Shown here: positions 4,650 to 63,899 of the stretch, one piece after another
Position numbering within the stretch: position 1 is the first letter of the stretch
Layout: each line of letters begins with the position of its first letter
Position numbers and translations under genes: made by a program
Notes under the pieces: model-generated
What the model saw: only the letters and a program-made list of their open reading frames with translations
Told to the model about the DNA's origin: nothing
Database searches by the model: none
Origin: Uloborus diversus
Lineage: Eukaryota
Direction: 5' to 3'
DNA: 64,000 nt
Assembly: GCF_026930045.1 (NCBI RefSeq)
Contig: NC_072731.1
Location: 138,010,156 to 138,074,155 of the forward strand

Positions 4650-4897
4650 GAAGCAGTGAGAAGCAAAGGGATGTAAGTGGCAAAATTACAAAATTGGAGA
4701 TAACTAGTACAAATAGTAGGGGAACATTTTCTCTGTCTTTGGGCAAGAGATGGTATTAGTAGCCCTGGTAGGTGCTGCTGTACAACATGATTTAGAAAAA
4801 AAAAATCTAGGAAAGCCTACCTAGGACATTATCTTTTTATGCATTTTACTCAAAACTTGAAAATGTCCACTTACATCCCTTTGCTTCTCACTGTCTC
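4650..4897. mobile_element. Complete MITE (~248 bp) of the short MITE family
   Basis: About 30-bp TIRs: ...cagtgagaagcaaagggatgtaagtgg at 4654 and its reverse complement ccacttacatccctttgcttctcactg at 4867..4893. The internal core is shared with three other copies. Confidence 0.7.
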
Positions 4898-6900
4898 ATT
4901 TGTGAATGGTAAATATTTTTAAAAAATTCAGAAACAGTTGCATAAAACTTTAAACGGCAATTACTAATTTTGAACTCAGCTGCAGATACGACTTTTGTGC
5001 TTAGCATGGCAGTATACTCAAACCTGTAATTTGATGAATTGAGAGTTAAATAAACTGGGAAACAAATGGAACAATAGCTTTAGTTAACCTAATCAAGTCA
5101 ATTCGCAACGTTAAGGTCGAAGTGTTTATAGCACTATTGTAATGCACTTGACACAGAACTAGAAGGTTTAGACTTCTAATAGTAGCTTTTAATCCTTATT
5201 TTGAAAATATTTTAATTCCCAATAATTAATTCCAAATGAAGCCACTGCGAAGCGTCATAGGCTTTAGCTTGTATGTGTACTTATGTGCATTTTCCCTGTG
5301 CTATATATCTCTCATTGTTTTTTGCTTTTTTTTTAAATGTGTCTTAGAAAGTCTTTCAGAATATTTTATGAAGTTCCGAAAACTTTGTTTGTCACTGAAT
5401 TACCCCTTGTGACATGTTGCCTAAAATCAATTACATTATTTCAAAGTAAGCTCTCAATTTTTATGTGGATAATATCCGAGTAAAATCACATCCAATGAAT
5501 GCTCCTTGCCAGAATATTCACATCTGAGTGTTTAGTGTTATTTCAGACAATATTGAAGAAGCCATGAGCAAAACTAATCTCTATTCGCCTATTAGAGTAC
5601 TGTAGAAGCGGGTGACTATGGTACAATTTTATTACATTTTTAACCATAATTACTCAATAATTTTTCGAAAAAAAAAATGAAAGTGCATTATTATTATAGT
5701 TTAGGACATTGGATTTCGATTCAGATCCTAAAATAATTTTGAAACTTTACCCACACCCCCTCCAGAGCAATTTTTTCTTTGTACTTTTCTCACCCTCTCA
5801 TTGCGGGTGAGAATGGTACAGCACATGTTTCAACGTTTTCATATAGGTTTTGGTGGTTTGTACCACCCTCTACCTCTCTTATATTTTGACGGGAGAGTTG
5901 TAGATGTAAGTTATGCTGAAAATTGAACTTTGAAGAGTCAGGTACATCATAAAATCGAGATAAAACAAAGGCTTTATTTTCTTCATAATTTTTGAAGATA
6001 GATGCCAAATCATATCATCTTTTTCTGGCCACTGGCAAAATTTACCTCGTTTTTACATTGTTGAAACTTCCAACTCACTTTCATCTACCCCCGAGATTTT
6101 TCCTGGGTAATTTTTCCCCTGATAACCCAACGCACCCTCCAAAATTTCGACTAATTACTGTACCACACTCACTCTCCAAATTGTAAACTTTACACATTTG
6201 TAACTGTAGCAACATCAAAATGTTTTAGTTTTGAATGAAAATTGTAGATAACTTTCTTTATGTAATATGAAAGCGAAAGGTACTTACAAAAGTGCGATTC
6301 CTCCTGCACTAAAAGTCCACCAACATGAATTTCCGGGCTACCTACAAGCGCGTAGCACCAGTTGCTCACAATAAATAAATTCACAATCACTCGGTTATTC
6401 ATCTAGCGGGCCGTTTTGACAGTTATAACAGCTCTCTCATGACCAGAGACGGTTGCACAATAGTTCCTATTGAAACTGAGCTAGGACAGAATGCACTACA
6501 AGCGCTTATTACCTCAAAACTGAGGTTTGTATCATTCTCACCCTCTAAACCATTCTCACCGGCTTTTATGGTAAGTAATTTTAAAACGAATCAATCCTGT
6601 GAATCCTTATTATGTCATAAAAAGTTTATAATAAAAAAATTTAATTATTCTTTTATTTATTTATTTATTTATTTTTTGGCTGAAATCAATACGCTTGACC
6701 AGGATATTGATGTATTTTCTGGTACCACATCATTTCTAAACAAATGTATATTACTGTTTACCTAATTTCATGCTTATAGTATTTGGTTCTCTTTAGATTT
6801 ATAACAAGAGTTTCCTTCATGTGTTTGTCCAGTTAATTTAAACTTAAAACTTATTGGTTACTGCATTATGAAACAAATCATGTGATCATTTTCTATTTAG

Positions 6901-9530: not shown

Positions 9531-9629
9531 GTCATGAATAACCTTATGGGGTGCTTGCAAAGAGGAAGAGCTTGTCTATTGATTCCAAAGAAGCGCACCA
9601 TTAATGAGCTTCAGCATAGTCGCAACATG
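9531..9629 (+). CDS. Host gene exon; VMNNLMGCLQRGRACLLIPKKRTINELQHSRNM
   Basis: Acceptor ttttcttccatag|G, donor ATG|gttagt; 99 nt, phase 0/0. Confidence 0.5.
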
Positions 9630-10372
9630 GTTAGTAACTGTCCCTTTTAAAAATTCTTAACCCAATATCCCCCCCCACCCCTTTTTTTTGTAAGGAGTAT
9701 TTTTACAAAATTTTTATTAGTAGAAATTTTGAAAGAAAGTTTAAAGAATGTTGTCTGAGATAAATGAACATTTTGATCAAGTCTTTTGATGTTTGGTTGA
9801 AATGTTTCACAAAATCTATGCTCTGTTTGAACTTATTTTCCCCCTAATGAATTTTTTTAAATTAAAACATTTTGATTCTTCCATTTTGATCTCTGAACCA
9901 CCTTATAATCATTAATATAACTGTCATGTAATCTAATGTTCATGATGTTTTTAATTAAATATTGCAAATTGCTTTTTGAAGAAAGTTTTTACATCTATGA
10001 GCCATTACAGGTGTCGAATTGAAGTTGATTTTAATATTTATTTTAAAAAGACTTTTAAGGTTTGATGCATTGAAAAGAGATAAAATGGAGGGAGTGAAGA
10101 CTTTCATTCTAGAAGGAAAGACCTCAAGTTACGTGATAATTTTAAAGCAAAGCATTGGAAGAAATCAGGTTTCCTTCGCTAGTTTCATGCAAAACATGTC
10201 AACCATTCATCGTTTATTGAGTCACGTGACTTGAGCTCTTTGCCCAATCTTTTGCTTAGCCAATGATTGGACTAGCTCCCTCCATTTACAATTCCTGCTC
10301 TTCGATTTGAAGGCAACCAAATTTTGAATTTTAGAAAAGGAAAAAAAAGTTTTTGATGGTGAACTCACTTAA

Positions 10373-10385
10373 CCGTTTACCCGCC
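10373..10385 (+). repeat. piggyBac-like left 13-bp TIR, preceded by the TTAA target site
   Basis: Sequence ttaa|ccgtttacccgcc. Confidence 0.7.
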
Positions 10386-11120
10386 AATGTTCCAAAAATG
10401 GAACATCATATTTAAGTGAAAATTTTCCCAAGAAATAACGTTAAAATAAACAAGTTTTTTTTAACACAGTTTAGTCTTATTTCAAAGTATTTTTTGATTT
10501 CCTGCTTGATTGTTTATATGTTTTCAATTATTTATTGCGATTTTTCAAAGATGAGTGTTTTTTTAGCTTTTTGCAACTTTTTCTTATAAAATTTACCAAA
10601 AATTGACTTTTTCAGAAAATGTGATGATCATTATTATAGTTGAGAAAAATACTTCAATGTACGATTTTAAAATGCTTGTCGAAATGTACATTGATATTTC
10701 CGAAAAGTGTGCCCCTTCAAAATAGCATGTTCCAATTTTGGAACATTGGCGCTTTTAGGGAGTCAAATTTCCAAGAAGTAAATCGTTCGACTTCCAAGGG
10801 GAAATTTCATTTTTCGTAATATATGTTTCTTTTTTTTTCTCATTTTGAATGTACTCTGATGTAGATGTTGGCAAAACCAAGTTTATATTTTGAAAGGATA
10901 TGACGTTTCGTTAGCAAAGAAAATAATAACAGTCTTCTGTTTGACGGACTATATGGCTCCGAATCCACACCTGCTCGGACAGCTGCATTGTCACGTGATA
11001 ATAAAAAATAATATAAGTGAGCGTTTTATTCTTCATATTTTAAATGCAGTTCAATAATTCGCTAGCTTTGCTTTCGAGCGAAACGAAATTCTGTTTGACG
11101 TATACCAACTGTTCATAAAT

Positions 11121-11445
11121 TGATTCGGCGATATTCTAAGTGGACTGTAAGTTTTGTTTTCAGTGATGACTAATTGCTTTAAGAACATGATTCCAGTAAT
11201 CATTTCCAGCTAACCAATATAGCTGTTCAAAATTTAGGGACGAATACCCTGTTGCAAAAGAAAGCTATGCTCCGTAGCAGGAGCTCTACAAAAACACAAC
11301 CATATTCGAGCAAGTCGGCGAACAAGCTGAAACCAAAAACAGAGCTAGGCGCGCAGGCTGCGTTGAATTGTTCTTCGGAGGCTCGCAGACGATTTCTAGA
11401 GTCCGTTAAACAATCAAGGCTTGTCTGTAGCGTAATGACGCAACA
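11121..11445 (-). repeat. 3' LTR of the BEL/Pao element (325 bp)
   Basis: It matches 16953..17312 with about 1 substitution plus one 35-bp indel. On the plus strand it starts tgattcggcg and ends cgcaaca (TG..CA in element sense). Confidence 0.9.
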
Positions 11446-11590
11446 TACCGGCCCCCGTTGAGATGTCTCAACATGCAATGAGATTACAATCTGGACTAAA
11501 TATATAAACTAAGATAAATTCAAGTATGCAAAATAATATAAGACAAAAATACAAAATAATAAGAAAATTTGAAATTTCCATGAATACTAA

Positions 11591-14500
11591 TTATTCGTTC
11601 CCTTCTAGGGGAAGAGGGCAAATTTTCGATATTGCTCTTTTTACTACACCTGATAGTGTTTTAATTTCTAGCACTCTAACCTTTCCATCAGAACCAGCAA
11701 TGATCTTAAGGATTCGACCTAGAGACCATTTACAAGGGGGTAAATTTTCATCTTTAATGATCACCATGGTTCCTTCTTTAAGATTTTTCTTTTCAATGAA
11801 CCATTTATTTCGTTGTTGAAGGTGGTTAAGATAATCGTGCTGCCATCTTTTCCATAGATTTTGTGACATTTTAGTGATTTTTTGCCAACTAGACAGCTTG
11901 TTATCACTAATACTACTGATATCTGGTTCCACTATCGACGTTATTGGACGACCTATCAAGAAATGAGCTGGCGTTAAGACTTCAATTTCGTTAGGGTCCG
12001 ACGACAAAGGGAGTAAAGGGCGAGAGTTTAAAATGCCTTCTATTTGGACAATCAAGGTCCAAAATTCCTCTAAAGTTAAAGGGGAACTACCTACTGATCT
12101 TTTGAGGTGGTGTTTAAAAGATTTCACCCCAGCCTCCCATAATCCACCAAAATTGGGTGAGCGGGGAGGGATGAATTTCCAGTTAATAGCCTCAGAAGCC
12201 AAATAATCACTTAAAGTGTCGTCAGGATTTTTAACTAAGGCATGCAATTTTTTAAGCTCAGTATTTGCACCAACAAAAGTAGTGCCATTATCCGTTAAAA
12301 TTGTGGAACTTTTACCTCTGCGAGCGAAGAATCTTTTAAGGGTAGCAATGAATGATTCTGATTTTAAATCAGTTACTATATCTAAATGTATTGCCTTGGT
12401 TGCGAGGCAAACGAATAATGCTACAAAAATTTTATTGAGAGTCCCTTTTCTTTGATTTTTGTATTTAATGGAGAAAGGACCACAAAAATCAATTCCACAC
12501 TCCTTAAAAGAGGGACTAGGGTTTACTCTTTCTGAGGGTAAATTTCCCATTATTTGATTGATTCCTCTAGGTTTATTTCTAAAACAGACAAAACACTTAT
12601 GAACAATTTTACGAGCTAGTGATCTTCCATTAATTATCCAATAACTTTGCCGGACATGATGCAATAAAGCTTGTGGTCCAACATGAAAAAACTTCTTGTG
12701 AAAATATTCAAAGATAATTTCACTCAATTTGTGGTCGTGGGGCAATACAATTGGGTGTTTTTTCTCATAGCTAAGATTAGAATGGTCCAAGCGACCTCCT
12801 ACTCGAAGTACACCTTCTGGATCTAAAAAAGGGTTCAAATACTTTAATTTACTCTTACCTGAAAGACAACTCTCATTTTTCAGATTTTGGATATCTTCAG
12901 CAAAACAAATCGTTTGTACCTGTTTAACCAAACAGGTTTCACTACTTTTAAGCTCTATTGCTGTCAGTGGTCCTGACCTTCTGCTATTTAAATTTCGACA
13001 GTTATAAACAAATCTAAAAATAAAACTAAAATTTCTAATTAGTTTCATAAAATTATTGCTTATAGAAAAAAGATCATTTCTAAAGTCATTAGGTGTTGGT
13101 GAAACAGCTAACTTTGTAAGTCCACACAGGCTGGTAGTTTCTTTAGTGGAAGTATCAGTAGAAATGTCCTTCATTTCTTTCAATATTATTACCTGGTCCT
13201 CTGAGGATAGATGAGGGCTTGCTGGTTCAGGGAAACTATTAGGACGAGTGAGAAAGTCCGGGCCATACCACCAAAGGGAATTGTCCACCAAGTCTGTAGC
13301 ATCTAAGCCGCGCGATATTAAATCACTGGGATTATCTCCAGACGCAATGTGGTGCCAATGAAAGTTCTGAGTATGGTGCTGAATTTTAGCCACCCGATTG
13401 CTCACAAATGTCTTTAGTTTCCATGGCGGGGTTTCGATCCATGCTAAGGCTATTTTAGAATCAGTATATAAATAGATACTTCCAATGTCCAGTTTTAAAG
13501 ATTTCAAAACTTTGACGACTAACTTGCTTAATAGCAGGCATGCTGAAAGCTCTAGTCTAGGTATAGTTAAGGTTTTCAAAGGAGCTACTTGAGATTTGCT
13601 ACTTATTAAGTGGCAAGACGTTTTGGAAGGAGATGAAGATTGGAGGTAGACAGTGGCTCCAAAGGCAATAGATGAGGCATCTGCAAATCCATGCAACGCT
13701 ATAAGTTTTGCACACGGGGTCAAAATGTAACGACTAATGGTCAAACTTTCTAAAGATTTCAAAGAGTTTGTGAAACGTATCCAGGAATTCGCTATAAAAT
13801 CTGGAACCGGGTCGTTCCAGTCTAATTTTAGTTTCCAAAGTTCTTGCATGAAGGTTTTGGCTCTGGTTATCACGGGTCCAATTAGACCAAGGGGATCGAA
13901 GAGTCGCACAATGTCCGAGAGTATAGTCCTTTTAGTTAATTTTTCACGGTGTTCAATTTTTACCTTGAAAGTGAAGACATCCGGTGTGGGTTTCCAAGTC
14001 ACTTCTAATGCTTTAGTTTCATTCTCTAAGAAAGAATGATTTTCCGAAGATCCATTATTGACACAATCAAGTAATTTGGAATCATTTGCTTTCCACTTAT
14101 GAAGGTGCATTCCAGCAGACTTCAAAAGTTCTATTAGTTGGCATTGAAGTTCTTGTGTAGCTTCAATACTGTCTTCTCCACTTAAGACATCATCCATGTA
14201 ACAATCATTCTTAAGGACTTCAGATGCTTTGCTAAATTTTTCTATTTCTTCTTCAGCCAGCTGTTTCAAAGTTCGTATTGCTAAGAACGGTGCGCACGAT
14301 GTGCCGTAAGTAACGGTGTTTAACTCAAAGGTGTCTACCGGGCCTTTAGGATCGGATTTCCATAAAATTCTCAATAATTTTCTTTGTTCTGGATTTATCA
14401 ATATTTGTCTGTACATCTTTTCGATGTCAGCGAGAAACACGAACCTATGTTTTCTAAAACGAATCATTATTTCGTAAAGCTCTTCCTTAACTTGACCCTT

Positions 14501-16885
14501 AAAAAGAATATCATTCAATGATTTACCATTCGTTGAAGGGCTTGAAGCATTAAATACTACACGGAGCTTGGTTGTAGGATTTTCAGAACGGTAAACTCCA
14601 TGATGTGGAAGATAGTAACAACCTGCATCTTCTTTGTTAACCTTGATTTTTGTCATGTGACCAAGAGTTTCGTACTCATCAATAAACTTATAATAAAGTT
14701 CTCGCATTAGGGGAGTTTTCTCCAGACGATTCCACAACTGCTGCAAACTTTTCTCAGCAACTAATTTTGAATCCCCTAAAACTGTCGGATCTTCTTTTAG
14801 CGGCATAGTAACTACGAATCTTCCTGTGTTCTCTCTGTGATATGTTTCTAAAAAATGATTTTCGCATTTTTTTTCTTCGTCACTGAGAGGAATAAATTCG
14901 TCCTCAACACTTTCTATTTTCCAAAATTTTTGAAGATTTTCTTCTAATACATCAGTTTGTTTTGTTAAACCGCAAAATGTCTGCAAACCTTGATTCCCTA
15001 GTGATCCGGAAACTATGTACCCGAAGACGGTGTTTTGAAATATTAAGCTAGAAACTTTTTGTTTTTCAAATTTTAGGATTTCGAAAAAAAGTTCAGCTCC
15101 AATAAGCACGTCTATTCTAGCAGATTTTCCAAAGTTAGGATCGGCTAGTTCTATATCTTTTGGTATTTCTAAATTGGTTGTATCCAGATCATTTGAAGGT
15201 ACCCAAGTTGTTATTTTTGGAACAATGTAGAATTCAATTGTTTTACTAAAAGAATTATCTTTATTTGAGATCCGTATTTGCATTTTGGATTTTATACTAG
15301 AAACGGTTCCGTTGATCCCCGAAACTAATACTTTAGCTTTCTTCTTCTTCCCTGATAAAGACTGAGCTAATCTATTCGTGGTCAGACTTAATTGACTTCC
15401 ACAATCTAAAATTCCACGAACTGGAATTCTAACGCCGTTTAAATCTTCCACATAAATAACAGAAGTTGCTAACAACACCTTATTTGAAATATGTTCTGAT
15501 CGAGAAATCTCGCTGCATAACGATTGCGAAATTTCAGACGATACGTCATTCCTAGTGCCGGGATCCTTTGAAGCGGAAGGAATATCCTTTTTATTTATGA
15601 GGCTATTACTGTCGCTATTTAGACTACGATTCCTAATTGGCGCCAAGGACTCCTTTCGATGAAGCAAACTATGATGTTTTTTCGAACAGATGGAACAAAG
15701 GAATGTTGATGGGCACTGCACAATTTTATGTTTAGTACTCAAACAATTCAAACAAAGATTAAGTTTTTTAGCTGTTAAATATCTATCATATCCTTCTAAT
15801 TTTAAGAATTTATCACACTTGAAAATAGAATGATTAGGTGATTGACAAACACTACAACTTGTATTTCTTTCACCGGCATTATTCTTCACCATCAAATTCT
15901 TAAATTTTTGGTTCTTTTCGTATGTTAAATTCTTAGATTTTACGGTTGCATTGCTATGTAAATTTTCTAGAACTAAGCATCGTTTTTGCAAAAAGGCTAT
16001 AAATTCTTCCCAAGCGGGTAATTCCGTGGAGGTCAATGAAAGTTCAAACTGCTTTCTCGTTTCTTTATCTAATTTTTTGAGAATGTTATTGATTAACATT
16101 ACTTCGGAAAATTTATTAAGTTCCAAACCTATCGTTTTGAGAGCCCGAATGTGCTTAAGACATCCGTCAACTACCGATCTTAGACTTTTTGCTGGATCTT
16201 GATTTGACACTTCCATTAATAATATTTCATTCATGTGAGAATTTACAATGAATCTTTTATTTTCAAACCGATCTTCTAAAGCCTTAAAGAGGGATGTATA
16301 AGAATCATCTTTACTAACTACCTCTAATGCACTATGACTTAAAGTCGATTTCAAATAATATAATTTCTGCGTGTCATTTAAGCTGTCATTAGAATCTATT
16401 AATGTGAGAAACTGCTCCCTGAATGTGTACCACTCCTGATAACTTCCAGAAAATTTTGGCAATGGCATTTCAGGCAATTTAAAATTAACATTCGAACTAA
16501 ATATTTTGTAATTATTCAAATCATTTCGATTTTCAATTTGATTACTACTAGTATTAGAAAGTAAGAATTTTCTCAGTCTTACCTCTAAGTTTTCAGAGAG
16601 TTCTTCAATTTCTGTGAAGACGGCTAGGTCCTTTTCTAAGTCTGATTCATCAATTACCACTTCAAAATATTTTAATTTTAATTCATCCAAATTTGAAACG
16701 AGCTTGTGCAGATTATCCAATTTCACTTGATATTCCAAGGAATCCTTTGTTCTTCCATCCTCAAGGAATGTTGCTATTCTTGTTATTTGTCCTTTGTAAG
16801 CACCTCTTTGGCGATTAAGAGTCACTAATTGTTCTTTACTCTGACGAGTAACTATACTATCTTTTTCCGTCATGATTAGTAACAA
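11591..16885 (-). CDS. BEL/Pao Gag-Pol polyprotein, 1764 aa, uninterrupted
   Basis: Motifs in the protein (aa position in brackets) are as follows. CCHC knuckles CSVCQSPNHSIFKC / CLNCLSTKHKIVQC (aa 344-391). Protease LDCGSQ (D494). RT core with YMDD (aa 896-899) and FLADIEKMYRQI. RNase H FADASS ... TDSKIALAWI (aa 1066-1150). Integrase zinc finger HH...C..C (aa 1409-1434) and DDE residues in GIDFCGP (D1465), LTDNGTTF (D1532) and E~1565. This domain order and the Pao-type protease are diagnostic of BEL/Pao rather than Gypsy or Copia. Confidence 0.92.
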   Translation of the reverse strand: MLLIMTEKDSIVTRQSKEQLVTLNRQRGAYKGQITRIATFLEDGRTKDSLEYQVKLDNLHKLVSNLDELKLKYFEVVIDESDLEKDLAVFTEIEELSENLEVRLRKFLLSNTSSNQIENRNDLNNYKIFSSNVNFKLPEMPLPKFSGSYQEWYTFREQFLTLIDSNDSLNDTQKLYYLKSTLSHSALEVVSKDDSYTSLFKALEDRFENKRFIVNSHMNEILLMEVSNQDPAKSLRSVVDGCLKHIRALKTIGLELNKFSEVMLINNILKKLDKETRKQFELSLTSTELPAWEEFIAFLQKRCLVLENLHSNATVKSKNLTYEKNQKFKNLMVKNNAGERNTSCSVCQSPNHSIFKCDKFLKLEGYDRYLTAKKLNLCLNCLSTKHKIVQCPSTFLCSICSKKHHSLLHRKESLAPIRNRSLNSDSNSLINKKDIPSASKDPGTRNDVSSEISQSLCSEISRSEHISNKVLLATSVIYVEDLNGVRIPVRGILDCGSQLSLTTNRLAQSLSGKKKKAKVLVSGINGTVSSIKSKMQIRISNKDNSFSKTIEFYIVPKITTWVPSNDLDTTNLEIPKDIELADPNFGKSARIDVLIGAELFFEILKFEKQKVSSLIFQNTVFGYIVSGSLGNQGLQTFCGLTKQTDVLEENLQKFWKIESVEDEFIPLSDEEKKCENHFLETYHRENTGRFVVTMPLKEDPTVLGDSKLVAEKSLQQLWNRLEKTPLMRELYYKFIDEYETLGHMTKIKVNKEDAGCYYLPHHGVYRSENPTTKLRVVFNASSPSTNGKSLNDILFKGQVKEELYEIMIRFRKHRFVFLADIEKMYRQILINPEQRKLLRILWKSDPKGPVDTFELNTVTYGTSCAPFLAIRTLKQLAEEEIEKFSKASEVLKNDCYMDDVLSGEDSIEATQELQCQLIELLKSAGMHLHKWKANDSKLLDCVNNGSSENHSFLENETKALEVTWKPTPDVFTFKVKIEHREKLTKRTILSDIVRLFDPLGLIGPVITRAKTFMQELWKLKLDWNDPVPDFIANSWIRFTNSLKSLESLTISRYILTPCAKLIALHGFADASSIAFGATVYLQSSSPSKTSCHLISSKSQVAPLKTLTIPRLELSACLLLSKLVVKVLKSLKLDIGSIYLYTDSKIALAWIETPPWKLKTFVSNRVAKIQHHTQNFHWHHIASGDNPSDLISRGLDATDLVDNSLWWYGPDFLTRPNSFPEPASPHLSSEDQVIILKEMKDISTDTSTKETTSLCGLTKLAVSPTPNDFRNDLFSISNNFMKLIRNFSFIFRFVYNCRNLNSRRSGPLTAIELKSSETCLVKQVQTICFAEDIQNLKNESCLSGKSKLKYLNPFLDPEGVLRVGGRLDHSNLSYEKKHPIVLPHDHKLSEIIFEYFHKKFFHVGPQALLHHVRQSYWIINGRSLARKIVHKCFVCFRNKPRGINQIMGNLPSERVNPSPSFKECGIDFCGPFSIKYKNQRKGTLNKIFVALFVCLATKAIHLDIVTDLKSESFIATLKRFFARRGKSSTILTDNGTTFVGANTELKKLHALVKNPDDTLSDYLASEAINWKFIPPRSPNFGGLWEAGVKSFKHHLKRSVGSSPLTLEEFWTLIVQIEGILNSRPLLPLSSDPNEIEVLTPAHFLIGRPITSIVEPDISSISDNKLSSWQKITKMSQNLWKRWQHDYLNHLQQRNKWFIEKKNLKEGTMVIIKDENLPPCKWSLGRILKIIAGSDGKVRVLEIKTLSGVVKRAISKICPLPLEGNE

Positions 16886-16952
16886 AGTTCTTCAACTAGA
16901 AATATTTTCAATAAAAATTCAGGTTCAATTTACCTGCGGCTGACGTGACCAA

Positions 16953-17312
16953 TGATTCGGCGATATTCTAAGTGGACTGTAAGTTTTGTTTTCAGTGATG
17001 ACTAATTGCTTTAAGAAAAAAGACTTTATAAACTATTTACACATATTTACAACATGATTCCAGTAATCATTTCCAGCTAACCAATATAGCTGTTCAAAAT
17101 TTAGGGACGAATACCCTGTTGCAAAAGAAAGCTATGCTCCGTAGCAGGAGCTCTACAAAAACACAACCATATTCGAGCAAGTCGGCGAACAAGCTGAAAC
17201 CAAAAACAGAGCTAGGCGCGCAGGCTGCGTTGAGTTGTTCTTCGGAGGCTCGCAGACGATTTCTAGAGTCCGTTAAACAATCAAGGCTTGTCTGTAGCGT
17301 AATGACGCAACA
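16953..17312 (-). repeat. 5' LTR of the BEL/Pao element (360 bp). It contains a 35-bp segment that the 3' LTR lacks
   Basis: It is a direct repeat of 11121..11445. The extra 35 bp (about 17018..17052) includes TTTATAAA. Confidence 0.9.
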
Positions 17313-17325
17313 TAAATGTTAAAAA

Positions 17326-18729
17326 ATGTCTACAAGATTTCTTACTGTAGAACAAGCTGTGGCTTATTTAGAGACATTGTCAGATTCGGATTTGTCAGAT
17401 GTAGATATATGCCAATTACCCCTGATGAACTAGGCAATATCACTGAGGAAGAATAGATGTTGACAAAGATAAAATCCTACAATTTTTTGGTTTGTTGCTT
17501 TTCAGTGGGTACCATTCTGTTCCTTCTGAAGATATGTATTGGAGCAGTTTAGAAGATACATCTGTGCCAATTGTACCAACAGTTATGCCTCAAAATCGTT
17601 TTCGAAAAATAAAAAACAACTTTCATTTGATGGACAACCATGAATTAAAACAAAATGATAAACTAAGAAAAGTTTTCCCTATTTGCGAAGAATTGTGTAA
17701 AAACCCTCAACAATTTGGTGTATTTTATGAAAAATCGAGCATAGATGAATCTATGGTTTCCTATTACGGACGGCATTCATGTAAAATGTTTATTAGATGA
17801 AAACCAATAAGATTCGGCTTCAAAATTTGGATGCTGTGCTCTTCAAGTGGATACCCATATTCCATGGAGATTTATTCAGGCAAAAAAGAAGGATCCCCTG
17901 ATGTGCAATTAGGATCCAGAGTTGTAAATGATCTATTATCAGTTTTGACTGACACGTCTAAGCATGAAGTATACTTTGATAACTTTTTTACATCATATGA
18001 CTTATTTTCTCAGCTATCAAAAAAAAAAAAAAAAAAAGTGTACGAGCAACAGGAACAATTCGTGAAAACCGAACTGGCCATTGTCCACGGAAATTCAAAA
18101 AAGCCCTTTCTCAAGAAGATCGAGGAAATTTTGACTATCGATCTGATGGATCAGTGTACATGTGCAGCTGGAATGATAATGCAGTGGTTACAGTAGCATC
18201 TAATTGTTATACACATGAGCCACTTGCATCTGTAAAATGTTACTCAAATGCGCAGAAATGCAAGATAGATGTGCCACAACCTCATCTTATCAAGAGATAC
18301 AATGAAGGAATGGGGGGTGTGGACATTTAGGATAAACTTTTAGGCTGCTACAGACGTCATTTGAGGAGTAAAAAATGGTGGTGGAATCGAGTAATTTTTA
18401 GTGATGTTCTGAATGTTTCAGTTGTAGCTAGTTGATTACTTCATTGTGAGTTACACGAAGTCATGATGAAGCATTTAGAGTTCCGAAGAGGAATAACAAC
18501 TGACCTCTTAAAAAGAGAAGTACTAGTAGAAAGTCATCCAGGGCCTCGTTGTCATTTACATAAACGATCAAGAATGTCTGACGGACATTATATTGTATCT
18601 GCATCCCAAGGACGTTGCGCGGTGTGCAAAAAGATACGACTAAGAAATGTGACAAACGACTTCACCAGCAATGCTTCCTTTCATATCATGGGCATTAGAT
18701 ATTTCTGTATTGGATTTTCTGAATTCTGA
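17326..18729 (+). pseudogene. piggyBac-family transposase pseudogene with multiple frameshifts and stops and an N-terminal deletion
   Basis: Fragments at 17326..17430, 17492..17800, 17831..18196, about 18198..18330 and 18463..18729 lie in different frames. They contain an acidic N-terminus (LSDSDLSDVD) and the motifs FSGYHSVP, MPQNRFRKI..LMDN, YYGRHSCKMFIR, KPIRFGFKIWML, VRATGTIRENRTG, YNEGMGGVD and a C-terminal Cys-rich CAVCKK. These are hallmarks of piggyBac (PGBD) transposases. About 70 aa are missing between the N-terminal tail and the FSGYH block. Confidence 0.8.
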
Positions 18730-18995
18730 TATGTACATAAATGCAACTTAAAATATTATTTTTTCCGTAATAATGTATGCTAAGATAAAAACCGCATTCA
18801 AAACCTCTTAGTTTAAAAAAATTCTCTGAAAAAAAAAAACTTCATGCAAAGCGCCAATGTTCCAAAAATGGAACACACTGAAAAACATAGTAAAAATTTT
18901 TTTTTCTGGAAATTTTATTTTATTTCTGTATTTACTAGACATAAATAGACATAATTTCAAAAAATTACTCAAATTTGATCATCCGTCAATAGTTC

Positions 18996-19008
18996 GGCGG
19001 TTAAACGG
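18996..19008 (+). repeat. piggyBac-like right 13-bp TIR, followed by TTAA
   Basis: Sequence ggcggttaaacgg|ttaa. Its reverse complement ccgtttaaccgcc differs from the left TIR ccgtttacccgcc at one position. Confidence 0.7.
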
Positions 19009-19164
19009 TTAAGAAGAAATTTATTAAGAATTCACTCAAAAATCAGGCAGGGCCCCCACACTGGCCCCTTTAGTTTTTTCTTAGTATAATACTAGTGGTA
19101 CCCGCACGGCTTTACCCAGCAGAATATTAAAAGGTCATCTGGTTCTCCTGACAGGGTCCGTACG

Positions 19165-19290
19165 GGTCGTGGGAAAACCTGGAAAGTCATGGGAAAAAAT
19201 AAACAAGTTTCAGACCTGGAAAAATCATGGAAAATTGATATTTTCATTAAAAGTCATGGAAATTTATTTTAAATCATGGAAAAATGTCTT
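19165..19290. repeat. Short tandem, low-complexity (C)ATGGAAAA-type repeats just outside the piggyBac right end
   Basis: catgggaaaa / catggaaaat / catggaaatt / catggaaaaa recur at roughly 25-30 bp spacing. Confidence 0.5.
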
Positions 19291-19997
19291 GGGCAATATG
19301 AAAGTAACAATAGCTAAAAGAGCCCTAGAAATATTGAGTGATTTAGTAATATTGCATATAAAATGAACAATCTCAAAAACAAATCTGAGTTTTGATATCC
19401 AATTTCATCTGCTTCTGCAACAGCCGCTCGCCTTTTTTTGTAATGTAATTTTACTACTGGGGCATCGCTTAGCTGACACAAGCTCGTCTACGTAGCCACA
19501 ACGTGTGAAATTTAAAGTTTCTGAGATTTCTCTGGGACCCCCTCATCAGATCACAAGACAAAATTATCATGGGACCATTTGGGAAGTCTACCCTTTCAAA
19601 CAAAAAAATAATTTCTCAAATCAGTCCAGGGGTTTAGGAGCAATTGGAAAACATACATAAAATGCCGCAAGACAAAATCATAACCTCCTTTTTTGAAGTC
19701 GGTTAAAAAGAAAAGTCAGGTTAATGATTAGAGCATTGCCTTTCAAGAGTTCTATAATTGTGACAAATGTGCATTAACAAGATTCTAGAAACATAAATGT
19801 ATCTGTATAAATTCTACACATGTTAATTTTTTACAAAATATATTGGGAAATCTCCTTCCCCCCCCCCCCCCCAAAAAAAATCTGTTTAATTGTGCACTCT
19901 ATTTATGCACATTTTTTTTTGTGTTTGCTTTGAAAGTTATAAAGAACCAACTTACTGCACTGAAAAATAAATATTTATGATTTACTTATGATTTTAG

Positions 19998-20033
19998 AAA
20001 TCTCTTCAACCACCATTACCTGGAGATCTAGCT
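19998..20033 (+). CDS. Host gene micro-exon; KSLQPPLPGDLA
   Basis: Acceptor tatgattttag|A, donor GCT|gtaagt; 36 nt, phase 0/0. Small exon, so lower confidence. Confidence 0.35.
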
Positions 20034-21365
20034 GTAAGTTTTTATGTGCAATCCCACAAATTAGTCTTTGCTGTCTACCACATATATTCTAAAGAAGCCA
20101 AGGGATCACCTAAATTTGATGTATTCCAGGTATAAAATCACACATTTTTTTTAAAGCCTTTTTAAAAAACTGTTTTCTTTTATTTATTTGCTTTTTATCT
20201 TGGTTAGCTATTTTGTAGTTAAATATTTAATGTCACTTCTAGGTTAAGTCCAACATTTTTCCTACTGTTAATATTGAATCCAAAATGCATTTCTTCAAAT
20301 ATCTTGAAAACTTATTTCTGCAGACACAGCCATTTACTTGCCCATGGCAGTATAAATGCAAACAAATCAAGTATAAAAAGGCTATATTTTATTTAAAAGC
20401 ATATGTTTCAAAAGATGATTTCTTATTATAAGTTTTACCAGTTGTGAAAGATCAAAACTTATGAGTTTATAAGGTGGTGGTATCTAGTTGAAAAGGGGAA
20501 AAAATGTGAGAGAGAGTTCTCTGTCATCTAAAATTGTCCAAATCAACCCTTTGTAAGGCCACATTCATCCATTAGTGCTACATTAAAATTGGTTTTTGCA
20601 TAAAGATAGTTAAAGAACATTAATTCATCTATGCCAGTGATGGTGGATCTATGACACGCAATCCCAATTGGAGTAATATGCCTCATACTATTCCGAAGTT
20701 ACTGGCAGAGACAAAATCTCAAAGAATAAAATTAAACTTGTATTGACTTATTTTTCTGTAATATTTGAGTCATGTTAAATTGTGAAAAGACATATTGTTT
20801 TCTATAAAAGAGTTAAACTCCCTGAACAAAATGTGTTTTGCTTTTTTGAAACTAACATGTCTACTGATTTTTTTTTTTTTTTTTTTTTTAACATAATGCT
20901 GCTGCAATTTTACTCTAGTATCAGTCATTTATCATTGTTTTTCTAGTTTTTCTAATATTAATTAATATAGAAATATCAAATACAACTATCAGAAATCAAA
21001 AGATCAAAAGTAAATACTATAGAGCTGCAAATATCAAAAATTTATTTCTATATATGGCATTGCATCAGAGTTGAATTAGGATTTTTCTGATTTCTGGCAT
21101 ATCGAGCTCAAAAGGTTTGCCATTACTTATGCCTGTAGTTTGTTGAAAGTATTTAACTTCACTTTTAACCTTACTCTTTTCTGATCGTAAGGAGGGACAT
21201 TTTAGCTAAATTTAAGCATCAATGTATTAGATGTCCTTTAAAAAGTGTTTAACAATCAAAGATGGTCAAACAATTTATTTTAGTCTCTAACATTGGTTGA
21301 AATTGTAGGAAAATTTTGCCCCCCTCTGCCTGATAAATAGTTAAGCTCTGGTACATAAACATATA

Positions 21366-21990: not shown

Positions 21991-22074
21991 GCTGAGTCAT
22001 CCGTTCCCTGGCTCAGCGAAGCTTTAGTCCTCTTCACTGTGTCTTTGCAACTGTGTCAGCAATTAAAAGATAAG
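21991..22074 (+). CDS. Host gene exon; [28 protein letters not shown]
   Basis: Acceptor cttctttttcaatag|G, donor AAG|gtaata; 84 nt, phase 0/0. Confidence 0.45.
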
Positions 22075-42869: not shown

Positions 42870-43470
42870 TTTTTTTTTTGTTTTAGGATTTGCCATGGAA
42901 AGTTATAGTTTTTTGTACAAAATGCTCAAAACTCATGGAAATTGACAGTTAGTCATGGGTTTTAGGCGCGGGCTGATTGCTCCCAATAGGGCCGTGTCTA
43001 TGGGGGCCCCTGCTTTAGGTGCCTTTGTTTGGATTTTTTCCAGGAGAAAAAATTGCTTGTTTAAAGAATTTGCAACAGAAAGTTATAGTTTTGAGTGGGA
43101 AATACTCAAAACTCATGGCATCGCCCAGTTAATCATGGATTTTAGGCGCGGGCTGACTGCTCCCAATAGGGGCCCCTGCCTCTAAAGGGGCCCCAGGCTT
43201 CAAGTGCGTTTATTTGGATCTTTCCAGGAGAAAAAAAATGTTTTTTTAGAGGATTCGCAATAGAAAGTCATAATTTTGAGTGGAAAATGCTCAAAAGTCG
43301 TGGAATCGACAGTTATTAGTCATGGATTTTAGACGCGGGTTGACTGCTCCCAATAGGGCCCCCCTGCGTCTAAAGGGGCCCGATGCTTCAGGTGCCTTTT
43401 TTTTTTTTTGGATTTTTTCCAGAAGAGAAAATTGGGACATTAGAAAAAAAAAGTATGTTTTTTTGTACGT
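42870..43470. repeat. Tandem repeat of about 3.3 units of ~185 bp
   Basis: Units start at about 42954, 43133 and 43319 (tcatggattttaggcgcgggctgactgctcccaatagg...). The six-frame ORFs 42955..43185 and 43280..43616 are translation artefacts of the repeat. Confidence 0.85.
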
Positions 43471-50359: not shown

Positions 50360-51800
50360 CATTGTTTACCATAGACTAATAATAAGAGTAGACCAAGCTT
50401 TCCCAGACTTGCTGATGAAAAAATTGGTTCATGGATACATCATGTGACTGGTGGAAGGCTTGGCGAAAACTTAAGGCAGCATGGTTGCTAGACGGCAACA
50501 TTATCTATAGTTTGGCACTCGACATGTATTTTAAGTAATGTGTTTTCATTATAAATTTTTTCCAGGTGCAGAGATTGAACTGTTTTTCTTTTAGTTATGA
50601 ATTATTTTGACATTAGTAATTAGTTTTTGATCACAGTTTTCAGTAACTTTTATTTCATTTGGAACTGCTACGTCAGCGTTGGCGTGAACGTAATGGAGTA
50701 AACGTTTTGCGTTAACGCAAAAATGTACTAATCGGAATCTTAAATTGAAATTGTGGGCAAAAATCTTACCGTTTGCCAATTCTATTTGGGCGCTTGCATT
50801 TTTAATTGCTTAGAGAGTTATTGAAATTGACTAAAGAAAATGCACAATACTATCTAAACAAAAAACTCACTATATTAACAAAATATTTACAACTTAGAAT
50901 AACAAATTTACAAATCGGACTCCATAAATATTCCGCGTTCCATCAATTCTATTTATTTTATTTCTCGCGGGCGTTGATCGTCTGCTACGCTCAACGCCTG
51001 CTGTTGCTAGGATATCCACTAGTCACATGGTTTGGTTCATGAGCAGCAAAGGGTTGCCATCATAGACTAATAATAAGAGTTGACCGAGCTTTTTCATTCT
51101 TGCTGATGAAGAAAATTGGTTCATAGATGTATCACGTGACTAGTGGAAGGGTTTGGCGAAGACTTTGGCAATAGTTTGACACTCGACATGTATTTTAAGA
51201 CAATGTGTTTTCATTAAAAAAAATTTTCCAAGTGCAGAGATTGAACAGTTTTTTTTTTTTTTTTAGTTATGCATTATTTTGACACTAGTAATAGTTTTTG
51301 GTCACAGTTTTCAGTAACTTTTATTTCATTCGGAACTACTACGTCAGCGTTGGCGTAAACGTAATGGCGTAAACGTTTTGCGTTAACGCAAAAATGTACT
51401 AATCGGTATCTTAAATTGAAATTGTAGGTAAAAATCTTACAGTTTGCCGATTCTTTTTGGGCGCTTGAATATTTAATTGCTTAGAGAGTTATTGAAATTG
51501 ACTAAAGAAAATGCACAATACTTTCTAAACGAAAAACTCACTATATTAACAAAATATTTACAACTTAGAATAACAAATTTACAAATCGGTCTCCATAAAA
51601 GATCATTCTTCCGTGTTCCATCAATTTTTATTTATTTTATTTCGATCGTCTGCTACGATCAACGCCCGCTGTTGCTAGGATATCCACTAGTCACATGGTT
51701 TGGTTTATGAGCAGCAAAAGGGTTGCCATAGCTCGGTCTATTCTTATTATTAGTCTATGGTTGCCATAGCTCGGTCTATTCTTATCATTAGTCTATGTTG
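50360..51800. repeat. Two tandem copies of a ~670-bp TIR-bearing (MITE-like) unit plus two extra terminal-repeat copies
   Basis: Units at about 50360..51058 and 51059..51728 each start catagactaataataagag(t/tt)gacc and end ggttgccat. 51729..51800 repeats the inverted terminus twice (agctcggtctattcttat(t/c)attagtctatg). The internal inverted pair is tcatgtgactggtgga / tccactagtcacatgg. ORFs 50806..51042 and 51477..51710 are repeat artefacts. Confidence 0.75.
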
Positions 51801-55132: not shown

Positions 55133-57346
55133 TAAAACAACAAAGAAGGTTATTAAATTATCTATCAAATCAATGTATTTATCTAACGAATAACGAATAA
55201 ATACCTTTGTGCTTGAAAATCAAATGAATCAATTGACCAGCTTTTTGATGCACAAAATATTGCAAATTACTGAACACACGTGTTTCGCTGTTACATGGAA
55301 CACTTTTTCAATGCAAAGAAGTGTGAGCTTTTGGATAAAAAGTCACCCGAGAAAAGCTTCGGATGACTTTTCATCACTGGCGTAGCAGCATGGGTGACAC
55401 CTAGAGTGGCAATTGATGGTGTCATCCCATAAAAACTGTTTAAAACGAGCTGATGTGTACATCACATGACTTCCTTTTACACCAATTTAAAGTTATTTCC
55501 CCATTATTGGATATTTTAATGTGATTCAATAGTTAACTCTTTAAATGTCTTTTAGAATGGTCAAATGGAAACAAGAGTTTTAAAAAAATCGCCAAGTTGG
55601 CGACAAAACTTGGCGACCAGAAGCTTGGCGATATATTGCCAAGTGTTTGCATAAATTATAACACCACTTGAGTTTGCATTGAAATTAACATTGATTTCCC
55701 CACAAAAAGGTGTAAAAGACCCCCTTTGGAACATTCGAATACAACCAAAGAGGGAGGTGCACAACTAGACCCCACTAGGAGTCTACGTACCAAATTTCAA
55801 CTTTCTAGGACTTACCGTTCTTGAGTTATGCGACATACATCCGCACATACGCACCATGGGCGCCCATATGCAAAATTGTAAGGGGGAGGGGCTCAGAGAT
55901 CTTAACCATGGTTTAGCAAGATATTTTCCCCATGAAAACTAATTTCAGGACAGACTTAGAGTCATTAAAATTTGACATTTTTAATAACTTATTCATTAAT
56001 GGTTGTAGCTCATTTTATGAAATATTTTTACATTTTGCAGAGAAAAAAGTACTAAAAGCAAGGAAGTTCTAATTTCTAAGGGGGGACTCGAGCCCCCCTT
56101 GCCCCCTATATGGGCGCCCTTGATACGCAATACGTTCATATGGACGTCACGAGAAAAGTCGTTGTAATTAACTCGGGGAATGTCAAAATGGATACTTCGG
56201 GTGTTTATACGTTCTTAGGCACTTATCCGCGTGTGGTGGGGTTGAAAAAAAAAAAAAAAAAAACTCAACATTAATTCGGGGGTTGGCAAAATGGAAATTA
56301 AGGCCGAATTTTGAGGGAAATTTTTTTCGCGAATACAATACTTCCTTTTTTGTAAAAGGAAGTAAAAAAAAAAAAAAACATGTAAGCGTAGAGAATATAT
56401 TTTAATCCAACATATTAAACATTTTAAAAATATATAAATCATTCTTCATCCAACTTCCTTACTGTCGATCAACCTTATTTTGAAGAAACTATCTGAATAA
56501 CCGGGAACTAAACAATTATCGACCAATGAAAAAGAGTGTTAATACGTGTTTAAATAAAACTTAGTTTATCTTTGAACGTTTTAGAATTCACAGCTGTCGG
56601 TTTGAAAATCTTCCAATGAATAGAACTTTAAAATAAAACTTGACATTTTAAGGTTACTGAGTGCCATTAAAAATACATTTTTGGGGTGTTAGGACGCTTC
56701 CAATGACTCTCTTTCGACAAGATTGCTACTGTGCATGTAAAACACAGCAAACGTAAAACCTAGAAGTGTTTTTCCAGTTCATTTTCTACTCTTTTGAAAT
56801 CTGAATTTCCGTCAATGGTTTTAGCTTTTAACAAGAAGTTCTGTCTAGAACTAGACGAGCCTACTTTCCCGTATACCCATACTACTTTCTAGTACCTGAT
56901 CAATATTCTCAAAAATAGCTAAAATCGCAAATTTTTTCAAACATATTTTAAAAATACTTTAAGCTGATTTCTAGGAATAAAATAAAGCAGCTAATACACT
57001 TTTTTCCATTAAAAAATTCTTTCACAGCTTTCAAAACGAAAAAATAATGATTAAAATTAATAAGCTCATTAAAATAAATACATCATATAAAAAAAAAATC
57101 GTTTCTTTGTCCGCTGTTGCCAAAAACAATTTTTTAAATGAATTAATGCACTTACCAGAATAAATAAAAACAATAAAATGTCAACTTAAAGAAATAATTT
57201 TCATTGTCAAAAAAAAAAAAAATCGTCTGCGCATATCTTTATGTAGAAACATAAATGACTTCGAGTTTATTCGCCGAAAGTTGAATACCTAAATTAAAAC
57301 TTTAGCGTAAAAATAAAAACAAGTCACATCAATAATAATCTTTTCA

Positions 57347-58186
57347 CAGTCAAAACTATAGCTGCGGAGTCGGAGTCGGAGTCAGTCTCATTTTGGGGTA
57401 AAGGAGTCGGAGTCGAATATCCAAGAATCTGAGTCAGTCATTTGTCCTCCGTGTATAAATTTTTGCCAAAGCTACGAAGTCATAGTCGAAGTCAGGGAGT
57501 CGGAGTCCGATTAATTGTCGGGCACTAAAGTCGGAGTCGGAGTCAAGTGCCCCTAAATTCTCGGAAACGAAGTCTGGAGTTTGGCGTCAAGAGCTATTTC
57601 CAACAAAATTTGTTTGAAGTAAATCCGCCTTCAAGTACGGAATCAACATTGATTTTCAGTTTCCCCATAGGCGCTAATGTTAAGGGATTTGATTTGTTCA
57701 AAATTGAACGGAAAATTGTTCAAATCAAAAAGATATTTTATATACAAGTTTTTCATCAAACTCTTTTTCCTACAAAGTTTGTTTGAAGCAAATTCGCCTC
57801 ACAGTTCGGAATTGCCTTGAATTTCCCCCTAGGCGCTAACGTTAAGTTTTTTTTGAATTGTTCAAAATTTAACAAAAAATATTTCAAATCAAAAAGTGAA
57901 ATATGGGAATGAGGTATCCTCGCCGAGATCTTTCGAACAAAAAAAAGTTTGTTCGAATCGGACTATTCATTCAAAAGTTATTAGGGGGGGGGGGACAGAC
58001 AGACAGACCGACAGACACTTTTCCCCATCTCAATACCCTACTTTCCAATTTTTAATTTTTCGATATTTATTTAATTATTTTATTTATTTTTGACTTTTTT
58101 TTGTTTTTTTGCGATATTTTTAAGATGCATTAAGCCTTCTTTCATGCTTTTTTCTTCTTTTTCTGACTTTTACTGGGAAAGTAGGC
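57347..58186 (+). repeat. Copy B of the ~850-bp dispersed repeat, the inverted partner of 1143..1998
   Basis: See copy A. It is rich in GAGTCG hexamer runs at its 5' end and has the same internal ~180-bp tandem duplication. Confidence 0.8.
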
Positions 58187-58286
58187 TAAAAACACAGAAT
58201 GTATATTTGAAAGGAAAACCATTGGCTAGTTTAAAATAGTAAAGAAAAAAATATTCAAAAATGCACTTTTAGCTCCTCTTTAATTG

Positions 58287-58398
58287 CGGCAGTGAGAAGC
58301 AAAGGGATGCAAGTGGACTATTTTAAGTTTCGAGTAAAACGCATTCAAGATCAGATCCTAGGTAGGCTTTCATTATAAATTTTTTTCTAAATCACGGG
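58287..58398. mobile_element. Truncated copy of the short MITE family (left TIR only)
   Basis: gcggcagtgagaagcaaagggatgcaagtggactattttaagtttcgagtaaaac..., then it diverges. Confidence 0.55.
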
Positions 58399-63744: not shown

Positions 63745-63899
63745 GATCATGCTATACAGCAGCACCTACCAGGGCTACTAGTACAATCTCTTGTCTCAAG
63801 ACAGGGGAGAGGTTCACCTACCAGTTGTACTGGTTATCTCCAAATTTTTAATATTGGGACTTGCATCCCTTTGTTTCTCACTACCTCAATTTCAATTTT
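63745..63899. mobile_element. Truncated copy of the short MITE family (core plus right TIR)
   Basis: catgctatacagcagcacctaccagggctactagtacaatctcttg...gggacttgcatccctttgtttctcactacctca. Confidence 0.55.

Follow-up and report, generated by a model that had tools for sequence, protein, structure and literature searches.

A BEL/Pao retrotransposon inside a piggyBac-type transposon in an intron of a rogdi homologue of Uloborus diversus

We analysed a stretch of 64,000 nucleotides from the spider Uloborus diversus (contig NC_072731.1, positions 138,010,156 to 138,074,155 of the forward strand), here called the window, and are highly confident that a single intron of its rogdi homologue received two successive insertions of transposable elements (TEs). 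The outer element is a piggyBac-type transposon, spanning 10369..19012 together with its target-site duplications, and the inner one is a BEL/Pao long terminal repeat (LTR) retrotransposon. The order of the two insertions is fixed, because the target-site duplication (TSD) of the BEL/Pao element consists of piggyBac sequence and the whole composite lies between the piggyBac ends. The rogdi homologue and the piggyBac open reading frame (ORF) lie on the + strand and the BEL/Pao ORF on the - strand. These strands agree with a preliminary description of the window, in which the BEL/Pao element was antisense to the gene and the piggyBac element in sense.

Boundaries and identity of the two elements

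The ends of the outer element can be read directly. On the left, a TTAA duplication (10369..10372) is followed by the 13-bp terminal inverted repeat (TIR) CCGTTTACCCGCC (10373..10385, + strand). On the right, the second arm (GGCGGTTAAACGG on the + strand; 18996..19008, - strand) is followed by the other TTAA (19009..19012). The arms, which form the inverted pair I13, are complementary at 12 of the 13 positions. The 17-mer made up of TTAA and TIR, with at most three mismatches, was found at these two sites only in the 64-kb window and in inverted orientation; 0.08 matches were expected in shuffled sequences, and none of 100 shuffles reached two. Between the left end and the BEL/Pao insertion point lies the left arm (10373..11120, + strand), 748 bp of 5' non-coding DNA with no coding content. 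A palindromic subterminal motif, ATGTTCCAAAAATGGAACAT, occurs at 10387..10406 (element positions 19-38), again at 10727..10746 (359-378) as an inverted copy with its flank, and a third time at 18857..18876, 136 bp from the right end. Removal of 11121-17317 in silico yielded an element of 2,447 bp, in line with the ~2.44 kb proposed before. A second copy of this element was not found within the window.

A decayed transposase gene occupies 17326..18729 on the + strand. The proposal that it belongs to piggyBac was confirmed by a Pfam match to DDE_Tnp_1_7 (E=5e-68, frame-corrected translation of 17477-18697) and by matches to the solved structures of piggyBat (9c0f, E=4e-24) and piggyBac (6x67, E=8e-16). 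Its named relatives are "PGBD3-like" proteins of spiders and ticks. At the level of these profile and structure matches, individual catalytic residues aside, the product would be a DDD transposase of the RNase H fold. Compared to the closest intact relative (P0001, 575 aa, 69% amino acid identity, from a Logan contig), the gene in the window has lost about 114 codons (aa 45-158) and carries four frame changes. Stop codons interrupt its frame at 17798-17800, 18328-18330 and 18433-18435, and a run of A residues (A19, 18019-18037) is expanded; judged from these lesions it is a pseudogene. Its ATG at 17326 lies 8 bp past the TSD of the inner element, and the distance of 6 bp given earlier was wrong.

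The inner element covers 6,192 bp (11121-17312, - strand) between two copies of the TSD TAAAT (11116..11120 and 17313..17317). Both LTRs have TG..CA termini. In the orientation of the element, the 3' LTR is 325 bp long (11121..11445, - strand) and the 5' LTR 360 bp (16953..17312, - strand); they match at 324 of 325 aligned bases (a single substitution) and are otherwise distinguished by an indel of 35 bp. The additional 35 bp (17018-17052, AAAAGACTTTATAAACTATTTACACATATTTACAA on the + strand) are present in the 5' LTR and not in the 3' LTR, as a result of either an insertion or a deletion. One uninterrupted gag-pol ORF of 1,760 codons plus stop extends over 11591..16873 (- strand). Pfam domains in its translation are DUF1759 (gag; residues 141-278), Asp_protease_2 (aspartyl protease; 478-531), RVT_1 (790-929), the Pao signature Peptidase_A17 (980-1139, E=4e-47), Integrase_H2C2 (1380-1436) and DUF5641 (1662-1754), and two CX2CX4HX4C knuckles and YMDD are also found there. 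The rve integrase core was matched at E=7e-7 when its sub-sequence was scanned alone, with 29.9 bits, below the cutoff of 32.6. The domains, the LTRs and the TSD thus support the earlier identification of a 6.19-kb BEL/Pao element. Adjoining the 3' LTR is a short G-rich stretch (AACGGGGGCCGGTA, 11446..11459, - strand) that weakly resembles a polypurine tract, by its position only. A 16-mer like a primer-binding site (TGGTCACGTCAGCCGC, starting with TGG; 16936..16951, - strand) lies 1 nt downstream of the 5' LTR. When the window was scanned for its tRNA partner, no tRNA genes were found.

The protein nearest to this ORF is XP_054711310.1 of Uloborus diversus, with 1736 of 1760 residues identical (98.6%) and one 1-aa gap. 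The next-best match has 46% identity, and hundreds of arthropod BEL/Pao polyproteins fall in the range of 35-46%. Because the LTRs have diverged by 0.3% and the proteins differ by 1.4%, XP_054711310.1 is most simply taken as a paralogous copy rather than as an allele of the element in the window. The family would therefore include two or more copies whose ORF is full-length (1,760 and 1,759 aa). Look-ups by exact protein sequence gave no record for either the ORF of the window or its Uloborus paralogue (P0121). As both ORFs are full and the LTRs are 99.7% identical, the family might still be transposing in Uloborus, and the insertion might be recent, possibly polymorphic and able to alter the expression of rogdi. 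We consider this unlikely. If it were true, the antisense LTR promoter or the sheer size of the insertion, by which the intron grew from 1.7 to 10.4 kb, could change rogdi expression.

Order of the insertions and alternative histories

We suggest that cut-and-paste transposition brought a piggyBac-superfamily element into a TTAA of the intron between the exons 9531-9629 and 19998-20129, in the orientation of the gene. With its transposase gene wrecked, this copy has no autonomous mobility. Its intact ends could in principle allow mobilisation in trans, and this would be less likely now that 6.2 kb of extra cargo is aboard. Later, a BEL/Pao element used its integrase to enter the 5' non-coding region of the piggyBac element, 8 bp before the transposase ATG. 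This event duplicated the 5 bp TAAAT and placed the newcomer antisense to rogdi. The BEL/Pao copy appears young and coding-competent, and both elements would leave with the intron when the rogdi pre-mRNA is spliced, presumably with no effect on the gene.

A full chronology of piggyBac insertion, transposase decay and BEL/Pao insertion had been proposed in the preliminary description. The nesting and the TSD place the piggyBac element before the BEL/Pao element, as was claimed, but the decay cannot be dated from the boundaries and has to be estimated from the near-identical LTRs. The single substitution that separates the LTRs over 325 bp corresponds to about 0.15% change per lineage since BEL/Pao integration. 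At this rate about two substitutions would be expected in the 1.4-kb transposase remnant since BEL/Pao entry, with a very wide confidence interval. The lesions observed in the transposase far exceed this expectation, and therefore most of the damage probably predates the BEL/Pao insertion.

The piggyBac copy may have been defective already on entering the intron. In this history the nesting is the same, and a defective or non-autonomous copy was mobilised by the transposase of another copy. Such an origin would account for ends and subterminal motifs that are all well kept (TIR 12/13; identical 24-mers at 10382-10405 and 18852-18875) beside a heavily damaged ORF, a combination typical of internally deleted, trans-mobilised copies, and the deletion of ~114 codons could be the product of an abortive gap repair. 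However, the point lesions (three stops, small frame shifts and the expanded A-run) resemble slow decay in place, which is inseparable from a defective entry as long as a family consensus is lacking. A defective entry is conceivable, and we regard it as the less probable course.

Far less probable is the idea that the pairing of TTAA and 13-bp TIR is coincidental, such that the transposase stretch is a relic without boundaries and 10369-11120 is ordinary intron. That the window holds no other copy of the element and that the left arm has no coding content would fit this idea, but the 17-mer occurs at two sites only with 0.08 expected, and it is already contradicted by a comparison with relatives. 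As relatives we used contigs from other samples that encode related transposases (L001-L005) and contigs obtained by a pattern scan of metagenomes (L006, L007 and L009). L003, L004 and L005, with 55-60% amino acid identity, start with TTAA, CCTTTTA(C/A)A(C/G)(G/T)CC and then AATGTTCC...GGAACAT. The same type of TIR is found in L006, L007 and L009, which have an identical layout by the pattern scan; L009 is complete with 2,412 bp. All six elements share the start TTAA, CCnTTTAnnnnCC, AATGTTCC..GGAACAT, and the right end (...AAAAGG before TTAA) is also present in L003 and L005. The first motif copy lies at element positions 19-38 in the window, in L003 and in L005. The second lies at 359-378 in the window and in L003 and at about 365-382 in L005. 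The third is 136 bp from the right end in the window and in L003 (3018-3037) and 134 bp in L005. The transposase ATG is also conserved in its offset, at position 761 in the window and 752 in L003. The closest piggyBac relatives, L001 and L002 (67-69% amino acid identity), come from contigs that end before the TIRs; each has one motif copy upstream of the ORF, and a short stretch at the end of the L002 contig matches the region of the right-hand motif.

These common ends and offsets indicate that the TTAA/TIR pairing is not a product of chance, that the 748-bp left arm, collinear with L003, is part of the element, and that the excision restores a canonical element with the layout of L003. The relatives thus carry the same termini as the copy in the window, together with its subterminal motifs. 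Because the ends and motif offsets are common to the relatives, an origin of the two flanks from unrelated fragments is ruled out. We consider it hardly credible, too, that the order was reversed, with the LTR element first in the intron, or that the flanks are two unrelated piggyBac pieces. Nothing specific speaks for either, apart from the DNA just 5' of the ATG, which is unconserved across species and makes the junction unalignable to relatives. The two flanking pieces complement each other without overlap as portions of a single element, in a layout that full-length relatives share, the TSD TAAAT of the LTR element is piggyBac sequence, and the TIRs and TTAA sites flank the whole composite.

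The subterminal motif has the form ATGTTCC-N(4-6)-GGAACAT, usually after CCA, and is present in three copies whose distances from the ends hardly vary, in the spider element as well as in marine and other metagenome elements with 55-60% protein identity. By analogy with the internal repeats of piggyBac, it is a plausible candidate for a binding site of the cysteine-rich C-terminal domain of the transposase.

The rogdi homologue, its intron and the surrounding sequence

The intron that bears the nest was delimited by tblastn with tick and mite Rogdi proteins. The upstream exon (VMNNLMGCLQRGRACLLIPKKRTINELQHSRNM, 9531..9629, + strand) has the acceptor ccatag/G and the donor ATG/gttagt, and the downstream exon (KSLQPPLPGDLAVSFYVQSHKLVFAVYHIYSKEAKGSPKFDVFQ, 19998..20129, + strand) has the acceptor ttttag/A and the donor CAG/gtataa. 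Over 43-44 aligned positions, the latter shares 73-77% identity with Rogdi proteins of ticks. The intron between them (9630..19997, + strand) is 10,368 bp long. The composite with one TTAA copy makes up 8,640 bp, or 83% of it, and 1,728 bp would be left without them. In total, tblastn placed six colinear exons on the + strand, at ~378-455, 770-856, 6901-~7011, 9531-9629, 19998-20129 and 21991-22074, with GT donors at all six and AG acceptors from the exon at 770 onward. Their concatenated translation matched Rogdi_lz (PF10259) with 68.5 bits (cutoff 29.4, E=8e-19). When a 44-aa peptide spanning the two exons was run with HMMER against all 1.84 billion representatives, 47 Rogdi-family proteins were retrieved at E<=1e-3. 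The top two come from ticks and have 75-77% identity over residues 1-44, gapless across 9629/19998, and named matches include "rogdi atypical leucine zipper" of a mite and "ROGDI" of a sandfly. As the homologues align unbroken across the junction, and with the six exons and the Rogdi_lz match, we take the 10,368-bp intron to be real, a conclusion drawn from homology and splice consensus.

The preliminary description had placed the intron correctly and had ended the downstream exon at 20033, whereas the homologues and tblastn extend it to 20129. The shorter call of 36 bp arose because a donor-like GTAAGT at 20034-20039 was misleading; it encodes an in-frame Val-Ser within the conserved "A[VAI]SFYVQSHKL", and the homologues read through it. 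That the composite is not intronic and the proposed exons are chance ORFs can practically be dismissed: the mis-delimited 36-bp exon and a word-index protein search that gave no candidates for the 44-aa peptide might have favoured it, but 47 HMMER matches, the best with 77% identity and colinear across the junction, and six colinear exons with splice signals and a Rogdi_lz match stand against it.

The empty word-index search was dropped as evidence against the exons, because the 47 homologues retrieved by full HMMER make it a false negative. It occurred despite many exact 5-mers in common with the homologues, for example in MGCLQRGRA and SRNMKSLQPPLP of the tick protein P0244. Negatives from word-index searches with short queries are not trustworthy. 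A scan for open frames between AG and GT gave mostly noise, yet it listed the real exon 21991-22074. N-terminal exons of rogdi are not in the window, and the last exon (expected ...VSVFS.Y...) was not found by tblastn in the 42 kb that follow the exon at 21991-22074 (22075-64000). Either the gene is much larger than the window, or tblastn misses the 3' exon because it is too short or has diverged too far.

Several points weigh against our reading of two successive insertions into a rogdi intron, or limit it. The splicing of 9629 to 19998 is predicted from the homologue alignment and the splice consensus, and the donor of the exon 9531-9629, GTTAGT, has an unusual T at +3. Both insertions were read from this one sequence of the locus. 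The piggyBac comparison covered elements from other samples, which give neither a family consensus nor a direct age for that copy. In the BEL/Pao element the protease motif is DCG, not DSG or DTG, with the same residues in the Uloborus paralogue. The word "intact" is justified for its ORF, LTRs and TSD and not for its priming signals, because the tRNA scan of the window gave no partner for the sequence like a primer-binding site and the polypurine tract is weak.

Other repeats were noted around the gene. An inverted pair of ~1 kb (1163-2160 and 57180-58192), 55 kb apart and 89.5% identical, represents another dispersed family and contains tandem sub-repeats (1449-1597 and 1612-1766; 57578-57732 and 57747-57896). 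A short dispersed repeat (110-230 bp, 80-92% identity) has four copies on both strands, at 928-1152, 4677-4902, 58282-58394 and 63746-63889. They look like a short interspersed nuclear element (SINE) or a miniature inverted-repeat transposable element (MITE), and one of them is found shortly after the rogdi exon 770-856. Downstream of the mapped rogdi exons there are two tandem duplications, one of ~690 bp (50370-51060 and 51061-51729, 85% identical) and one of ~180-370 bp (42878-43236 and 43057-43431, 78-80% identical). The ten longest stretches free of stops in the rest of the window gave nothing significant in Pfam searches. We also considered a fourth TE layer around the composite and found no evidence for it, as the sequence on either side of the composite has no second copy in the window. 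In the U. diversus genome, repeats account for 66.6%, unclassified repeats for 29% of the sequence, and the annotated pieces include 10,210 of BEL/Pao and 11,411 of PiggyBac (PMC9912274).

Significance and comparison with known systems

The two elements are unremarkable members of well-known superfamilies, and nested insertions in large introns are common in repeat-rich genomes. What we describe is an ordinary layering of mobile DNA that calls for no new mechanism and raises no new biological question. Its value is mainly for annotation. A BEL/Pao family that is young and possibly active is represented here by a copy with every boundary clearly defined, and a piggyBac clade marked by a conserved subterminal palindrome is delimited in a spider genome. 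A large rogdi intron is seen to consist mostly of recent transposon cargo, and the composite can serve as a seed of a TE library for Uloborus.

Like Pao of Bombyx mori and BEL and roo of Drosophila, the inner element has TG..CA LTRs, a TSD of 5 bp (4-6 bp expected) and a single gag-pol ORF in which CCHC knuckles, protease, reverse transcriptase (YMDD), the Pao-type region, the H2C2/rve integrase and DUF5641 follow in canonical order. Unlike other BEL/Pao elements, it belongs to a species-level family, with 98.6% identity to a single protein of Uloborus diversus and no more than 46% to others in the library, and it has the protease motif DCG and short LTRs (325 and 360 bp) with a 35-bp indel.

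The outer element shares with the piggyBac superfamily (piggyBac/IFP2 of Trichoplusia ni, piggyBat of Myotis lucifugus and PGBD3-like elements) the TTAA duplication, 13-bp TIRs starting with CC, asymmetric subterminal repeats, a size of ~2.4 kb and a DDE_Tnp_1_7 transposase with a cysteine-rich C-terminal region. In contrast to the known elements, its TIR is CCGTTTACCCGCC and not CCCTAGAAAGATA, its transposase is a pseudogene, and its subterminal repeat is a palindrome, ATGTTCC-N-GGAACAT, with three copies at fixed offsets. This repeat defines a clade that also includes contigs from marine and other metagenomes.

The host gene resembles ROGDI (PF10259) in that the six exons are, exon by exon, 45-86% identical to the tick Rogdi homologue P0244; it differs in that only the middle of the gene is covered by the window, with the N-terminal exons upstream and the last exon not found. 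Nested insertions are known from the retrotransposon nests in the intergenic DNA of maize and from TE nests in large animal introns, and the preference of intronic LTR elements for the antisense orientation is established, of which one case is no test. As in those nests, the younger element lies inside the older, the order follows from intact TSDs, and the LTR element is antisense to the host gene. The nest in the window is two elements deep and does not differ from them in kind.

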